A stretch of DNA of 64,000 nucleotides from NCBI GenBank assembly GCA_038227875.1, contig JBBRPR010000028.1, forward strand, positions 40,559 through 104,558, read 5' to 3'. A model generated the notes under the pieces. The model did no database searches and was not told the origin of the DNA. It saw only the letters and a program-made list of their open reading frames with translations. This stretch comes from Planctomycetota bacterium (GTDB lineage Bacteria > Planctomycetota > SZUA-567 > H5-PLA8). Numbering within the stretch: the first letter of the stretch is position 1; each line of letters opens with the position of its first letter. A program made the position numbers and the translations under genes. This document shows positions 59,184-64,000 of the stretch, piece by piece.

Positions 59184-59265
59184 GCGCTCTTTCAGCGCTC
59201 TGTGGATCTCCGGGGGCTTTTCCAGGGGCGTTGCCCCTGGCTTTCACATTGCGCCCCTTTGGGGC
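59184..59265. repeat. Three-hairpin REP-like element (family C, diverged copy)
   Basis: gcgctctttcagcgc … ccaggggcgttgcccctgg … gcccctttggggc. Confidence 0.65.
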
Positions 59266-59530
59266 TACGGAACGGGCTTCATGCGAAATCGCGATTTTCC
59301 TATTATATCTATGCGGTCGAGAAATTCAAAAATCAAGTATAATCTTTAAAATTCATATGTAAAACTTAATTAATTTCGATCTTAAGGAGTTGTGAGAATT
59401 TGAGCGCTCGGGTTTTCATGGTGCAGTCTATTTCCATTTCCATTTCCAATGGGCTTGGAGTGCGGAGTGGTGATGAAGAGTGTCCATTTATAATAAGCGG
59501 TGATTGAACCCGAAAATCAAGGGAAATCTG

Positions 59531-59610: not shown

Positions 59611-59695
59611 AGCTTTTGTGTTGGATGGCGCGTGGCACGAATTCTTAATTGAGTAGCACGCGATGGGATTTCTGGCGGGTTCAGGCAGTGCAATC

Positions 59696-59783
59696 GATAG
59701 TTCGGGCTTTCAGCCCTTAACCGCGATCCGGCGCTGGTTCCTGGGGCGTTGCCCCAGGCTGGTATGGCGGTGGGCCTTTGGCC
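59696..59783. repeat. 88-bp three-hairpin element (family C), direct repeat copy 1
   Basis: gggctttcagccc … cctggggcgttgccccagg … gggcctttggcc. Six mismatches to 60656-60743 by hand alignment. Confidence 0.85.
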
Positions 59784-59883: not shown

Positions 59884-60348
59884 CTATTTCTTTTCCATTG
59901 CTGCGAGGTCGCGCTGTAATTCCTGTGCAAGCGCTTTATCCGATTCGCCAATCGGGGCCTTTAGCCTGCTGATTGGAATGCGACCGTATGGATTGTTGAG
60001 CAGTTTCAGCACTTCGGCGGCATCTACTTCCTGATACCGGTAGAATTTTTCCTGGAAAAAGAGGGTTTGAGTACCAGCGCGGATCTCATCCTTTGCGATG
60101 GGCGCACGCTCGGACTTCAATTCCCAGATGGAATCGCGTTTGTAGGTAATAATGACGACTGCTTCATTGTCCGTTGCGCTGGTCAACGGCGTGCGCGTCA
60201 CAAGCAACGGAATGTAACTGGTCTCCTCGTACTTGTCGGCCGCCTTCACGGTTAAATAGTACGCGTGTCGCAGCGGCATTTCGTCCGCGCCCCGGAGGCT
60301 TGCCGTAAGTGAACTGCAACAACACAGGCCAAGAATCAGCACCCGCAT
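59884..60348 (-). CDS. Secreted hypothetical protein
   Basis: Signal-peptide-like MRVLILGLCCCSSLTASLRGA. GGAGG upstream. Confidence 0.6.
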   Translation of the reverse strand: MRVLILGLCCCSSLTASLRGADEMPLRHAYYLTVKAADKYEETSYIPLLVTRTPLTSATDNEAVVIITYKRDSIWELKSERAPIAKDEIRAGTQTLFFQEKFYRYQEVDAAEVLKLLNNPYGRIPISRLKAPIGESDKALAQELQRDLAAMEKK

Positions 60349-60655
60349 TCCGATCACCCTCCATACAGCGGGCCATTGTACTGGCGGACGGTAAGCGCAG
60401 GGTAACAACCTTGTCACGGGTTAGTGATCAGGAGCGGACGGAGAGAGGCGATTGAGGGCGCGTTTTTAAGTTGTCCCTTCAGGACAACTTCGAAATCGGG
60501 GCGCTCTTTCCAGGGCGGCGGAGCATGGACGCATGCGCGTCCGTGCTCCTTCGCCCTTCGCTGATGAAAGCGGACCCGTTGGGTCCAACATAGTTTTCAA
60601 GATGCGCGGAATCGCGGAAGGGGCGGCCAACGACATCGAATCGCGCGGTGAGGTT

Positions 60656-60743
60656 GATAGTTCGGGCTTTAAGCCCTTAACCGCGATTCGGCGCTTTTTC
60701 CTGGGGCGTTGCCCCAGGCTGGTATCGCGGCGGGCCTTTGGCC
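60656..60743. repeat. 88-bp three-hairpin element (family C), direct repeat copy 2
   Basis: Lies 960 bp from copy 1 in the same orientation. Confidence 0.85.
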
Positions 60744-60827
60744 ATTGGAGGTGCGACGCGAAGCGCGGCAAATGTAATGTGGTGTCGCCAGCTCTGCGAT
60801 TACAACGGCTGCGAGCAGTTGGGTTGG

Positions 60828-61097
60828 TCAGGACAGCCATCGGACGCTTGTTGTCCGTTCGACGTAGGCGATTGCATCCGTGATCGTCGGGAAATGGCCC
60901 GCTCGTCCGGAAAACTTTCCTTTCTCGGCGCTCGACTCCCATAAGACGTAGTAGCAGTCGATGAGGCGGTCTGTTTCGGTAGTTCCGTCGGGGTAATTCC
61001 AGTGATCGGCGGTATCGGACTTCACGATCCTGACTTCGCAGTCAACCGATCCGTCGTAGAGCCATGTACCGTGTCGGACGATGGGATTCGCGCTCAT
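60828..61097 (-). CDS. Small soluble hypothetical protein, last gene of the coupled array
   Basis: MSANPIVRHGTWLYDGSVDCEVRIVK… (89 aa). ATG overlaps the TGA of the upstream gene. Confidence 0.7.
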   Translation of the reverse strand: MSANPIVRHGTWLYDGSVDCEVRIVKSDTADHWNYPDGTTETDRLIDCYYVLWESSAEKGKFSGRAGHFPTITDAIAYVERTTSVRWLS

Positions 61098-61492
61098 GGC
61101 TTGCGGGCCTCGCGGCGGCGGAGGAGGAATTCGGTGATGGCGGCGACGGCGGCGAGGATGGCTATTCCTGAAATCGAATTCAGGATCATGGAGGTTTGGT
61201 TCCACGTGACTACGGGTGGCAAGATTATTGATTCAAAATAGGTTTCGTGCGTCGATACAGCGCGATAAAAGTCGAGCGGCCATCCCTGCACGGTTGATTC
61301 AACGATCTGTGTGTAGGCGGGGTGACCCGTTTCGCCGGGCGGGAGCGGAGGTACGGTCGCCGGAATTTTATTGTAGTCCACCTTTTCGACGCGCCGCATA
61401 TTCAACCCAATCAACCCGCCTGCCGTGAACATCAGCAGCACCGCGGTCAGGAGGTGGAAGCGAAGCCACTTGCGCGTGGAGGCATCACTCAT
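61094..61492 (-). CDS. Array member 7: two-TM protein (FHLLTAV…GWP…RRREARKP)
   Basis: 132 aa with conserved ends. ATGA overlaps on both sides. Confidence 0.85.
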   Translation of the reverse strand: MSDASTRKWLRFHLLTAVLLMFTAGGLIGLNMRRVEKVDYNKIPATVPPLPPGETGHPAYTQIVESTVQGWPLDFYRAVSTHETYFESIILPPVVTWNQTSMILNSISGIAILAAVAAITEFLLRRREARKP

Positions 61493-61917
61493 GGCTTGCG
61501 AGCCTCACGGCGGCGGATGAGGAACTCGGAGGCGACGGTGACGGCGGCGAGGATGGTTATTCCGGAAATCGAATTCAGGATCATGTAAGTTTGGTTCCAC
61601 GTGACTACGGGTGGCAGGACAGCGGTCATCTGCGGCTGCGCTGATTCAAAATAGGCGTCGTGCGCCGACGCAGCGCGATAAAAGTTGAGTGGCCATCCCT
61701 GTATGGATGATTCAACTACCTCTGTGTAGGCTGGGTGAAAATTATTGCAGAAATTCGTTCCGGCGGGCGGAAGCGGCGGTACGGTCGCTGGAATTTCCTT
61801 GTAATCCACCTTTTCGACGCGCCGCAGATTCAACCCAATCAACCCGCCCGCCGCGAACATCATCAGCACCGCCGTCAGCAGGTGGAAGCGGAACCATGAG
61901 CGAGGCGTGTCTGTCAT
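61489..61917 (-). CDS. Array member 6: two-TM protein, close paralog of member 7
   Basis: 142 aa: WFRFHLLTAVLMM…QGWPLNFY…SEFLIRRREARKP. Confidence 0.85.
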   Translation of the reverse strand: MTDTPRSWFRFHLLTAVLMMFAAGGLIGLNLRRVEKVDYKEIPATVPPLPPAGTNFCNNFHPAYTEVVESSIQGWPLNFYRAASAHDAYFESAQPQMTAVLPPVVTWNQTYMILNSISGITILAAVTVASEFLIRRREARKP

Positions 61918-61919
61918 GG

Positions 61920-62462
61920 TTAGAAGCGTTTCTTCGCAATCTCAGCGGGCTTCACTGGCTCTGGCTTCATTTCAATGCCCTTGGCCTTAAGGCTCGCGGC
62001 GGTTTGTTTCAACCGCGTTTGGAATTCGTCTTCGCTCATAAACACGTCGTCGGTCGAGCCGAGCAGCACGTTGCGGCCCGCTTTCGCTTGGGATTCTGGC
62101 GGGTTCTCATACAGCACGATATTGGAACTGTCGCCAGGAGTTGAGCCGGGGATGTAAATGTAACCTGCCTCCTGGCTCTCCCACCCCGGACGCACAAAAC
62201 ATCGGGTGTCTGCAACATAGTAGGGGTAAAGATCGCCGAGATGGACTGGATTAGAATTATTAAATGTCGGAACGTCTGCGTACATCAACATGGCCTTTCC
62301 AACCGCGTTCATAATTCGTCCGCTTTCGGACCTGTGCGCGGCCTCACGGGTGCGGCCGATTGCAGATATCGACCCAAGCAGTAAGGCCCCACCGACGACA
62401 AAGATAACTACAGCCGTTGATAAACGGAACTGGGACCACGAACGCTTGGGCTTCTCGCTCAT
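61920..62462 (-). CDS. Array member 5: array leader fused to a pseudopilin/DUF1559-like body
   Basis: MSEKPKRSWSQFRLSTAV leader, then GRTREAAHRS…VGKAMLMYAD…LYPYYV…GRNVLL. Lacks the RRREARKP tail. Confidence 0.7.
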   Translation of the reverse strand: MSEKPKRSWSQFRLSTAVVIFVVGGALLLGSISAIGRTREAAHRSESGRIMNAVGKAMLMYADVPTFNNSNPVHLGDLYPYYVADTRCFVRPGWESQEAGYIYIPGSTPGDSSNIVLYENPPESQAKAGRNVLLGSTDDVFMSEDEFQTRLKQTAASLKAKGIEMKPEPVKPAEIAKKRF

Positions 62463-62764
62463 GGCTTGCGGGCCTCACGGCGGCGGAGGACGGACTCGGA
62501 AATGAACGCCATAAATCCCATAGCCGACACGGCGATCCCGACATCGAGCAGCGCGACCAGTACTTCCGACGCCGCGCCTAATCGAGCATCGGCGTCATTG
62601 TCTCGTGTAGCCCAATAGAACTTTAGCGGCCATCCAACAATGAACACGGGGTCGGCATAAACATAATGTAAATTCTGAAAAATGAAGAACGTTGCAACGA
62701 ACATCATCAGCACCGCCGTCAGCAAGTGGAACCTGAACCATGGGCGCATGGGGCTGGAGCTCAT
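62459..62764 (-). CDS. Array member 4: two-TM protein
   Basis: MSSSPMRPWFRFHLLTAVLMM…VGWPLKFY…SESVLRRREARKP (101 aa). Confidence 0.85.
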   Translation of the reverse strand: MSSSPMRPWFRFHLLTAVLMMFVATFFIFQNLHYVYADPVFIVGWPLKFYWATRDNDADARLGAASEVLVALLDVGIAVSAMGFMAFISESVLRRREARKP

Positions 62765-63099
62765 AGCTTGCGGGCCTCGCGGCGGCGGATGAAGTATTCC
62801 GAGAGGACTCCAAGTATGACGACTATTCCGATTGCAATGACAGCATTCAGAGCAACTACCCGCCAATCGGTATTTGGGGAGACATACGGCACCGTATAAA
62901 CGTATTCATTGAACACTGTTCCGACAGGTTGCTTTACCTGAACAAGCGTTCGAAGAGGCCAGCCCCACTCGATGTGCCAACCGTTTGGTTCGTGCCAGTA
63001 GTCTCTTCTGGTGTTGATCCATAACATGGTTCCCGCCCCAACCATCATCAGCACCGCCGTCAGCAAGTGGAACCTGAACCATGGGCGCTTATCGTTCAT
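62761..63099 (-). CDS. Array member 3: two-TM protein
   Basis: MNDKRPWFRFHLLTAVLMM…WGWPLRT…SEYFIRRREARKL. Confidence 0.85.
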   Translation of the reverse strand: MNDKRPWFRFHLLTAVLMMVGAGTMLWINTRRDYWHEPNGWHIEWGWPLRTLVQVKQPVGTVFNEYVYTVPYVSPNTDWRVVALNAVIAIGIVVILGVLSEYFIRRREARKL

Positions 63100-63461
63100 G
63101 GTTTGCGGTCCTCGCGGCGGCGGAGGATGGACTCAACCAGAACTCCAGTAAAAATTGAACATCCAAGCGCAACGGCAATATCGATCAACAGTGCATAGCG
63201 GAGATTGATGGCAAAGTTTTGCCTTGTCCAAATGGTTTCGCGCAAATCATCAAACGGTCCACCGCCGTCAATTTCAAATTGGAGCGGCCAACCGCGCACA
63301 CGCAAACTGTCGTCCCAGGTGGTTGAGAGGCCCCACGTTCTAATTTCATGTTCCGCACGCGGTATTGTAAATAGGAGCAGGAGGAGTCCAAGCGTCGCCG
63401 ACGTTGCAATCGCCGTGCTGAGATGGAACTGCCAGAATTTTCGCTTCGGCTTTTCGCTCAT
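63096..63461 (-). CDS. Array member 2: two-TM protein
   Basis: MSEKPKRKFWQFHLSTAI…RGWPLQF…ESILRRREDRKP (121 aa). Confidence 0.85.
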   Translation of the reverse strand: MSEKPKRKFWQFHLSTAIATSATLGLLLLLFTIPRAEHEIRTWGLSTTWDDSLRVRGWPLQFEIDGGGPFDDLRETIWTRQNFAINLRYALLIDIAVALGCSIFTGVLVESILRRREDRKP

Positions 63462-63835
63462 GGCTGGCGGGCTTCGCGGCGGCGGAGGAGGGATTCGGAG
63501 ACGAGCGCGACGGCGGCCAGACCCAATGAGCCAATGCAAACGTCATAGATGAGGTGTTCCGTCACATATCCGCTTGCGTTGTATTTATCCATCGTCCCCA
63601 CCTCCAGCCCCAGGTTTCTCCCCAGCGGAGGATACTCGGTCTCGTATGCCGCAACCCACGGCCAGCCCCAATAGCGGTGGTGCATCACGCCCCTTTCGTT
63701 ATAAAACTCAACCGCTCGTGTGGGCCCTTCATATCCTCTCAAGTTCGCCCACATAATACCGCCCGCCGCCAGCATCATCAGCACCGCCGTCAGCAAGTGG
63801 AACCTGAACCACGGGCGCCTGGTGTTATCGCTCAT
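63458..63835 (-). CDS. Array member 1: two-TM protein
   Basis: MSDNTRRPWFRFHLLTAVLMM…WGWPWVA…SESLLRRREARQP. Confidence 0.85.
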   Translation of the reverse strand: MSDNTRRPWFRFHLLTAVLMMLAAGGIMWANLRGYEGPTRAVEFYNERGVMHHRYWGWPWVAAYETEYPPLGRNLGLEVGTMDKYNASGYVTEHLIYDVCIGSLGLAAVALVSESLLRRREARQP

Positions 63836-63875
63836 GGCTTGCGGCCCTCGCGGCGGCGGAGGAGGGATTCGGAGA
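63832..63875 (-). repeat. Orphan 3'-end half of the array junction repeat (encodes SESLLRRREGRKP*)
   Basis: Matches the gene-end repeat, but the in-frame upstream sequence has no TM helix or GWP motif and runs into a REP-like sequence. Confidence 0.7.
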
Positions 63876-63950
63876 GACAGGCAGGAAGCGTCCCACTGAT
63901 TGTTGAAAATTGAAGAGCGTCCCGTGCCGATGAAGAAAGGTATGGGAGCG

Positions 63951-64000
63951 ATGAAAATGGAAAGTGACGAGATAGTGGAAGAGGTTGGCAGGATGGGGCC
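63951..64000 (+). CDS. Possible start of a small divergent protein (MKMESDEIVEEVGRM…), truncated by the window edge
   Basis: GGAG 5' of the ATG. Only 16 codons are visible. Confidence 0.3.
   Translation, partial: MKMESDEIVEEVGRMG

Follow-up and report, generated by a model that had tools for sequence, protein, structure and literature searches.

What kind of genetic system is formed by a run of small, tightly coupled membrane-protein genes whose ends look alike and whose middles do not? The question is raised by an array on the minus strand at positions 60828-63883 of a 64,000-nucleotide (nt) stretch of DNA from a Planctomycetota bacterium (the window; G000 contig C28:40559-104558), the last base of which is also the end of the contig. 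An initial annotation of this DNA proposed a diversifying display system, in which variable loops on a fixed membrane hairpin are gained, lost or shuffled by recombination at the gene junctions. Our analysis leads to a different answer, which is that the array belongs to an evolving multigene family and is not a programmed cassette shuffler. The explanation that we favor on balance is that the locus is the downstream stretch of a tandem, operon-like array encoding a family of small inner-membrane proteins. Each unit consists of a short basic N-tail, a first transmembrane helix (TM1, with ..HL[LS]TA..), a segment of 40-115 residues, a second transmembrane helix (TM2) and a basic RRR(E) tail, with the middle predicted to form a small beta sheet of four strands about a GWP that never varies. 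Units are strung together by ATGA overlaps or fused into polypeptides of 2-4 units, and arrays would grow, shrink and gain odd members through duplication, deletion and illegitimate joining at junctions of ~100 nt. Local gene conversion or repeated unequal crossing-over would keep the junction DNA alike within an array, and the middles would be old, diverged beyond recognition and under relaxed purifying selection. We hold this anatomical and evolutionary part with high confidence. As for function, the proteins may provide a repertoire of differing periplasm-facing binding modules on a common anchor, for which a polyimmunity-like defense against toxins that act on the periplasm or membrane, or against similar invaders, seems the likeliest use; we offer this part as a tentative guess.

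Anatomy of the array and its predicted fold

The array consists of eight genes that lie head to tail, preceded by the 5' remnant of another unit. The initial annotation had counted eight minus-strand genes coupled by ATGA with one exception, and the coordinates bear this out and add the remnant (G0) as a ninth piece. Stop and start codons overlap as ATGA at 7/8 junctions, G0/G1 included, and the sole exception is the G5/G6 junction, which reads TAACCATG. The features are as follows, from the upstream side.

63884-64000, no strand assigned: end of a multicopy repeat resembling an insertion sequence (IS), which terminates the contig, cuts the array's upstream side and lies near the ends of 17 other contigs
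63832-63883, minus strand: G0 remnant, the last 16-17 codons of a family unit (..CLSESLLRRREGRKP and stop), its stop overlapping the G1 start as ATGA
63458-63835, minus strand: G1, family unit of 125 amino acids (aa), hidden Markov model (HMM) E-value 3e-37
63096-63461, minus strand: G2, family unit of 121 aa with the most divergent ends (FWQFHLSTAI ... ESILRRREDRKP), by motif and HMM
62761-63099, minus strand: G3, family unit of 112 aa, by motif and HMM
62459-62764, minus strand: G4, family unit of 101 aa, by motif and HMM
61920-62462, minus strand: G5, putative chimera of 180 aa, with the family N-tail and TM1 (MSEKPKRSWSQFRLSTAV..) and a pseudopilin/DUF1559-like soluble body, followed by TAACCATG
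61489-61917, minus strand: G6, family unit of 142 aa, by motif, HMM and AlphaFold2 model
61094-61492, minus strand: G7, family unit of 132 aa, a recent tandem duplicate of G6 with 76% protein identity
60828-61097, minus strand: G8, soluble protein of 89 aa with neither family end, its start overlapping the G7 stop as ATGA

Six of the eight genes (G1-G4, G6 and G7) are two-helix units that carry both family ends. They share a plan comprised of a basic N-tail, a TM1 with ..[RQ]FHL[LS]TA[VI], a GWP in the middle, TM2 and a tail of the form E..[LI]RRRE.R[KQ][PL], and the HMM E-values of the six (5e-33 to 4e-51) rule out chance as the source of their resemblance. The common architecture that the initial annotation described thus holds for all six, with the reservation that its exact N-terminal motif does not, as G2 (FWQFHL) and G7 (WLRFHL) depart from it slightly. 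Polar residues are conserved inside the helices or at their ends, namely H, T and N in TM1, and D/N and E in TM2. No recognizable TM2 was found upstream of the G0 remnant. G8 has two relatives, at 82% and 67% identity and both without annotation, and no family in Pfam or NCBIfam.

An AlphaFold2 model of G6 built on a 43-row alignment (predicted local distance difference test score, pLDDT, 86; predicted template modeling score, pTM, 0.71) has a helix at residues 13-31, strands at 33-42, 64-73, 80-89 and 104-107, and a second helix at 109-139, with GWP at 74-76 directly after the second strand. A natural relative composed of two units is predicted to repeat the helix-sheet-helix arrangement twice (pLDDT 83.5, pTM 0.62). 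In these models, what had been called a hypervariable loop is a small four-stranded beta module in which a single motif is conserved and the insertions vary, and the sheet that the models have in common makes the loops look like old diverged paralogues rather than swapped foreign inserts. Because both tails are basic, we infer from the positive-inside rule that both are cytoplasmic and that the middle module is periplasmic. The picture of variable extracytoplasmic loops displayed on a fixed hairpin therefore survives in part: a variable middle does sit on a hairpin, whereas the notion of display is doubtful for a module that would face the periplasm and not the cell surface. Foldseek searches of the PDB gave no row at E <= 1e-3. 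The best match from VIA-align (wide) had a Z of 6.8, and the top rows were mostly helical proteins, as would be expected if only the helical hairpin was aligned.

Homogenized ends, diverged middles and joints between units

The junctions between genes form a repeat family (D1), and its copies lie at the following positions.

63786-63882, minus strand: junction repeat copy G0/G1
63412-63508, minus strand: junction repeat copy G1/G2
63050-63146, minus strand: junction repeat copy G2/G3
62715-62811, minus strand: junction repeat copy G3/G4
62413-62509, minus strand: junction repeat copy G4/G5, the reference copy
61443-61539, minus strand: junction repeat copy G6/G7

The initial annotation had spoken of a ~100-bp junction repeat with invariant ends. 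The repeat is there, in six copies of ~97 nt, and the invariance is not, as the copies are 61-75% identical to the reference copy. Pairwise DNA identity within the array is 0.56-0.86 for the N-ends and 0.62-0.86 for the C-ends. The loops had been described as unalignable, and with the G6/G7 pair set aside they are: global alignment of loop DNA gives an identity of 0.50, and shuffled loops give 0.51 +/- 0.06. The alignable exception is the pair G6 and G7, with 86-89% DNA identity over the whole unit. Loops range from 43 to 85 aa in the array and from 38 to 110 aa genome-wide, and BLASTP detects similarity between loops in only 5/5253 pairs among 103 full units. The loops are also richer in AT, as had been noted. 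In the array, the GC content of third codon positions (GC3) ranges from 0.49-0.67 for loops to 0.71-0.89 for N-ends, and among 52 full units of the genome the values are 0.59 and 0.71, the loop being lower in 43/52 (paired t test, p = 8e-10); long open reading frames (ORFs) of the same genome have a GC3 of 0.736. The trend is present in every other genome sampled.

An important question is whether the ends are alike only as proteins or also as DNA. As a synonymous measure we used codon identity at residues that are identical between two units, for which the genome's codon usage leads one to expect 0.36-0.43 (the range over four end segments). In the window array, leaving out the G6/G7 pair, this measure is 0.63 at the N-end and 0.70 at the C-end, the highest pairs being G1/G3 (13/15 codons identical) and G3/G4 (11/13). 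An identical N-end stretch of 39 nt is common to G1, G3 and G4, and the rare codon AGG, which accounts for 2% of Arg codons, occupies the same N-end position in these three genes and in three dispersed copies. Values are higher in genome G015, where a six-unit array reaches 0.92 at the N-end and 0.70 at the C-end and nine units from four other contigs reach 0.82 and 0.71, with loop DNA identity at the random level of 0.51-0.52. Between the window array and the G015 array, codon identity falls to 0.38 with both ends pooled. Point mutation extensive enough to erase the similarity of the loops would saturate the synonymous sites of the ends as well. Hence, within arrays, the ends would share a more recent DNA ancestry than the loops, which points to gene conversion, or to repeated unequal crossing-over, that affects the junctions only.

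One alternative is that purifying selection is sufficient, in which case the ends would be alike by protein need and the genes would be plain tandem duplicates with no recombination at their junctions. Copies dispersed over different contigs of the genome fit this proposal, since their codon identity is at chance (0.37 at the N-end and 0.40 at the C-end) and the protein motif is thus kept without homogenization of the DNA, and G6 and G7 behave as normal diverging duplicates. The proposal is difficult to reconcile with a synonymous identity of 0.63-0.92 within arrays whose intervening loops are random in DNA. End types are moreover genome-specific, with ..RFQIHLSTAIVLMFVAGGLIWANV ... CEWLIRRRAARKGD in G015 and ..SE.L.RRREARKP here. 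We regard selection of this kind, acting by itself, as quite improbable.

Several observations nevertheless weigh against treating gene conversion as the whole account of the ends. The dispersed units just mentioned lack synonymous homogenization, and the signal within arrays could come partly from tandem duplication of a younger date. In a small control, seven prepilin-like N-termini have a codon identity of 0.56, which makes the excess in the window array (0.63/0.70) a modest one, and the strong case for homogenization of the ends comes from G015. In the G6/G7 pair, the synonymous divergence (dS) of the N-end, at 0.51, exceeds that of the loop, at 0.25. Our account has limits as well, in that the alignments behind the structure models match the loops only around GWP, and the upstream end of the array is lost at the contig end behind the multicopy repeat.

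The middles do not appear to be evolving under diversifying selection. For G6 and G7, which are the sole alignable pair, the ratio of nonsynonymous to synonymous divergence (omega) is 0.46 for the pair as a whole and 0.54 for the loop, and selection on this pair thus appears to be relaxed purifying, with no sign of positive selection. The G2 loop has a counterpart in genome G010, of another genus, with 54% identity over 39 aa, and the array that holds this counterpart also carries an RRREARKP/ATGA junction. An omega below 1 and a loop conserved across genera argue against hypervariation of the arms-race type.

Recombination at the junctions, which the initial annotation had inferred from the repeat, is supported by the joints themselves as well as by the homogenized ends and random loop DNA. 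G5 has only the N-end of the family, that is, the N-tail and TM1, and neither TM2 nor an RRRE tail. Its body matches the C-terminus of an 810-aa DUF3352 protein of the same genome (47% over 129 aa, BLASTP E 7e-40), which itself has a sub-threshold SBP_bac_10 match, and a pilin-like protein with N_methyl and SBP_bac_10 (DUF1559) domains (33% over 100 aa, BLASTP E 3e-8). G5 has no match in Pfam, and the N_methyl prepilin motif (GFTLIELL..) was not found in it; the protein opens instead with the tail and TM1 of the array family. From these matches, G5 appears to be a chimera of the family N-end and a pseudopilin-like body. The G8 start sits exactly at a junction. Elsewhere in the genome, on contig C61, a gene for a 918-aa double GT4 glycosyltransferase ends in ..IQKP and a stop and is ATGA-coupled to a two-unit family array, and its junction DNA, AAGCCATGAGCGAGAAGCCCAAGCG, is the same as that of the G4/G5 junction in the window. 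Scars are found as well: contig C24 (~480-520) has a mini-ORF of 12 codons (MRDIRRREGRRP) between two ATGA junctions, and contig C22 (~770-880) has a collapsed unit in which the N-end runs straight into the C-tail, followed by the N-tail stub of the next unit. In-frame fusion of two units is seen in G015 (EWLIRR|ARFQIHL), and a database protein carries a read-through fusion, ..RRREARKT-MSEPDKPKRKFWQ... Together with the duplicate pair G6/G7, these joints would account for odd members, losses and gains at the junctions. At the C61 locus (L046, G000 C61:24559-29569), an FGE-sulfatase gene precedes the glycosyltransferase gene.

At ~23-140 nt from their ends, 17 other contigs carry a sequence that is 98-100% identical over ~117-120 nt to the multicopy repeat bounding the array, and the end of one additional contig matches it partially, over 60 nt. 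In the best-covering public run (X1, Logan contigs), summed contig depth is 234-690 at the repeat and ~13 in the array, a ratio of ~20-50x. The repeat is probably the terminus of an IS-type element, and its presence at the upstream side of the array would explain the contig break and mean that the array is truncated there.

Do these joints reflect a programmed system, in which dedicated machinery gains, loses and reshuffles units at the junctions and produces clonal loop variation? Active turnover of this kind predicts unit-sized gains, losses and swaps bounded by AAGCCATGA. The junction-delimited units, the chimeras and scars, and the combination of homogenized ends with unrelated loops are all what one would expect of it. 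The mobile context is suggestive also: an IS-like repeat cuts the window array, transposase genes of IS110-like and IS200-like type are neighbors of members elsewhere, and family loci are enriched near contig ends and IS-like repeats (15/51, compared with 11.9% expected, p = 6e-4). This enrichment may reflect IS-rich regions or only the tendency of repeats to break assemblies. No recombinase recurs beside the 51 loci or the eight arrays of relatives, no inverted repeats of at least 20 nt occur within 60500-64000, and the eight junction strands fold as single-stranded DNA no better than shuffles (z -1.69 to +0.77). The predicted common fold of the loops with its GWP, the omega values below 1 and the G2 loop conserved between genera are also contrary to such a system. 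Finally, four public runs yielded Logan contigs that break at the junctions and no trustworthy alternative joints, the sides being short (18-45 nt) or separated by unknown letters; runs X2, X3 and X5 cover the array in part. The junction recombination of the initial annotation is thus supported and a dedicated diversifying mechanism is not, and we give programmed shuffling little credence, preferring ordinary recombination within a multigene family.

An additional feature of the junctions concerns the transcript. At 63780-63880 (minus strand), for example, pairing is possible between the RRR codons (GCCGCC) and the T-A-V codons of the next gene (GGCGGT), and between the start ATG and CCATGG of the P-W codons. 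Such a candidate mRNA hairpin would bury the start codon and might serve translational coupling. When the hairpin was evaluated with RNAalifold, just 1/17 pairs was compensatory and the covariation term was +0.83, and we do not rely on it.

Range of the family and candidate roles

The family is undescribed and new to the libraries searched, lineage-restricted and massively expanded. G1-G8 gave nothing above threshold in Pfam, NCBIfam, PADLOC or PHROGs, their best Pfam matches being at chance level (10-16 bits, with cut-offs of 20-35), and no Pfam family exceeded its cut-off among 36 database relatives, in keeping with the earlier failure to assign a named domain. Literature searches with the motif strings and related word sets found no description of the family. 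In the ESM Atlas, G6 and G8 matched unnamed clusters only, and the clusters nearest to the family are unnamed Planctomycetota proteins. A word-index search with G6 returned 33 proteins, all hypothetical or unnamed, and those retrieved have near-identical ends and unrelated middles, while the G1 loop by itself found only a self-match in a word-limited search of an index of 5.8 billion proteins. A family profile of 43 members, run against 1.84 billion cluster representatives (clusters at 50% identity), matched 5061 of them at E <= 1e-3, a number that falls to 2637 at E <= 1e-10 and to 39 at E <= 1e-30. Searched for as exact DNA, the N-end pattern had 0 matches in genome contigs and 2 in metagenome contigs.

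Copy number and arraying, which the initial annotation had singled out for a profile search, turned out to be extensive within one taxonomic family and scarce outside it. The genome has 78 units at 51 loci, of which 35 are single-unit and the window array is the largest, and 14/16 other genomes of the same taxonomic family carry 12-93 matches each. Among other families of the order and class, 1/14 genomes had a match, and it was marginal. An even sample across the phylum, with at most 30 candidates scored per genome, had matches at E <= 1e-5 in 3/150 other genomes, and two of these belong to the same family. Adjacent unit ORFs overlap as ATGA in 17/24 pairs of the genome, and among the 150 best-scoring representatives, polypeptides of 2-4 units are common. 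Both separate and fused forms can be present in a single genome and on a single contig. Outside the window on the same contig (G000 C28:31785-32762), and at locus L032, there are two-unit fused members and ATGA-coupled pairs of two-unit genes.

The occurrence of the unit both as coupled genes and as fusions raises the possibility that the proteins form a hetero-oligomeric membrane assembly. Hairpins would be packed as a ring, pore or lattice with the loops decorating its periplasmic face, and coupled or fused genes would supply neighboring subunits. This is the main rival to a binding repertoire. By Rosetta-stone logic, an ATGA-coupled form and a fused form of 2-4 units suggest proteins that work side by side, and the conserved polar residues of the helices and the two-unit model with its pTM of 0.62 agree with contacts of this sort. 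An assembly of fixed composition fits poorly with the 12-93 matches per related genome, and 35/51 loci are single-unit. Moreover, structural searches returned nothing beyond a generic helical hairpin (best Z 6.8). We therefore consider an assembly doubtful and continue to prefer the repertoire of binding modules as a working hypothesis.

Neighboring genes provide little guidance to a partner. Within 3 kb of the 51 loci of the genome, neither a recombinase nor a toxin recurs, and none recurs among 58 flanking ORFs of eight arrays in relatives, a limited sample in which no Pfam toxin domain was found. The genes that do recur at the 51 loci encode proteins resembling extracytoplasmic function (ECF) sigma factors (6 loci), Ser/Thr kinases (4), Gfo/Idh/MocA proteins (4) and FGE-sulfatases (3), all of which are abundant in such genomes. 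It is conceivable that the hairpins are membrane sensors or anti-sigma-like partners of ECF sigma factors, given that ECF-sigma-like ORFs lie within 3 kb of 6/51 loci and, in three cases, directly downstream on the same strand. A sensor of this type would have to signal through cytoplasmic tails of merely ~8-12 residues, however, and the window array has no such neighbor. Sigma factors, kinases and FGE-sulfatase genes are also very numerous in these genomes, and we think a partnership with ECF sigma factors extremely unlikely. FGE-sulfatase as a partner was rejected as too weak a candidate, with 3/51 loci compared with ~1.7 expected from 32 genome matches. FGE-sulfatase-domain genes do lie directly upstream, on the same strand, of 2/8 arrays in relatives (G015 L033:8596-9729 and L034:9258-11479).

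The surroundings of the window array contain other features. The genes downstream of it (DUF58, transglutaminase and alpha-2-macroglobulin) look unrelated to it. Within the array, no promoter- or terminator-like sites exceed those of shuffles, a result that is compatible with a single transcript and proves nothing. A dispersed repeat of ~90 nt lies downstream of the array at 60656-60746 and 59690-59780, the two copies being 92% identical, and has ~15 further copies in the genome at 76-88%; its 45-nt core (60698-60743) is present in many contigs of all four public runs. At 59222-59266 (plus strand) there is an Rfam match to the small RNA Acido-Lenti-1 (36 bits; gathering score 37, E 2e-5), situated in a largely ORF-poor stretch at 58.4-59.9 kb, in which G+C falls to 0.25-0.50 over ~58.8-59.7 kb. 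An ORF of 177 aa at 59884-60417 (minus strand), also downstream of the array, has a hydrophobic Cys-rich N-terminus, no match in Pfam or NCBIfam and no paralogue in the genome.

Comparison with known systems

Among systems in print, polyimmunity loci and proteins appear to be closest in logic. As described in the parts of the survey by Zhang et al. (2012, PMC3482391) that deal with them, such loci are tandem runs of distantly related paralogues in the same orientation, with minimal spacing and no toxin genes between them, and polyimmunity proteins contain the same domain in several fused copies. The same parts state that organisms usually hold a single polyimmunity locus and that the number and type of genes in these loci differ between strains of one species, and they list no extended polyimmunity loci for Planctomycetota (Zhang et al. 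2012, PMC3482391). The array resembles these loci, so described, in its tandem same-strand coupling (7/8 junctions ATGA) and in the existence of fused proteins of 2-4 units, and it differs in having membrane hairpins with homogenized ends and no Pfam Imm match. The differences also bear on our guess at function, and several of them count against it. No toxin gene recurs beside the 51 loci or the eight arrays of relatives, the 51 loci contrast with the single locus that is usual for polyimmunity, and none of the array proteins has a PADLOC match. If the modules do serve immunity or recognition, they would represent polyimmunity-type defense in Planctomycetota.

Immunity families with two transmembrane helices are known, and the table of the same survey includes Imm17, which has a WxW between its helices, and Imm-CdiI (PMC3482391). 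As tabulated there, these are small two-TM proteins with a conserved aromatic motif between the helices, as here. Here, however, there is no Pfam match and the middle is a predicted beta module of 40-115 residues with GWP, and the phyla listed for Imm17 in that table exclude planctomycetes (PMC3482391). P2X receptors and CorA/Mrs2 channels likewise have a two-helix hairpin with an extracytoplasmic part between the helices, but the matches to them (Z 6.1-6.8 over 56-70 residues) are below the tool's meaningful level and give no evidence of relationship or of channel function.

Other comparisons concern how the array evolves. In integron arrays, small units that mostly lack promoters follow one another closely on one strand, with a recurring element at each junction, and the window array is likewise a tight same-strand run of small units with such an element between them. 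The junction here is coding, being made of a C-tail and an N-tail, and is not an attC site; it has no palindrome and no stable single-stranded DNA hairpin. No integrase was seen beside the arrays of relatives, and the upstream flank of the window array is lost at the contig end. A diversity-generating retroelement, for its part, is not known to yield unalignable loops of variable length such as those of the array (43-85 aa). The Bab outer-membrane paralogues of Helicobacter pylori reportedly recombine through conserved terminal segments and differ in their central parts, and the family shares with them this pattern of recombining termini and differing centers. The Bab proteins are few-copy outer-membrane adhesins of a pathogen, whereas the proteins described here would be inner-membrane hairpins present in tens of copies in free-living environmental bacteria.

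Rifin, Stevor and Pfmc-2TM of Plasmodium are large multigene superfamilies of two-TM proteins (PMC1751529). They belong to a eukaryotic parasite that exports them to the host cell for immune evasion, and with no homology and no operon arrays the analogy is one of logic only. These proteins are said to carry a hypervariable stretch on a conserved scaffold, as a title in that literature suggests. One may speculate that a bacterial counterpart of such eukaryotic variant-receptor families has arisen in a single lineage of Planctomycetota, at the rank of family. The coding ends of the scaffold would double as recombination substrates, between which periplasmic beta modules that are new or turn over rapidly would be inserted, as would the occasional piece of another gene, the G5 body being an example. 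Each cell would thereby possess tens of recognition modules, encoded in its genome as an innate repertoire, with which to meet periplasm-entering toxins, parts of phages or other ligands. We think it unlikely that the comparison extends this far. The pattern is a variation on multigene families with recombining ends and on polyimmunity-like arrays, and its distinction lies in the combination of ends homogenized within arrays, dissimilar middles with one predicted fold, and coupled-gene or fused-repeat forms, which makes the family a clean bacterial system for understanding how coding junctions drive gene birth, death and chimerism.

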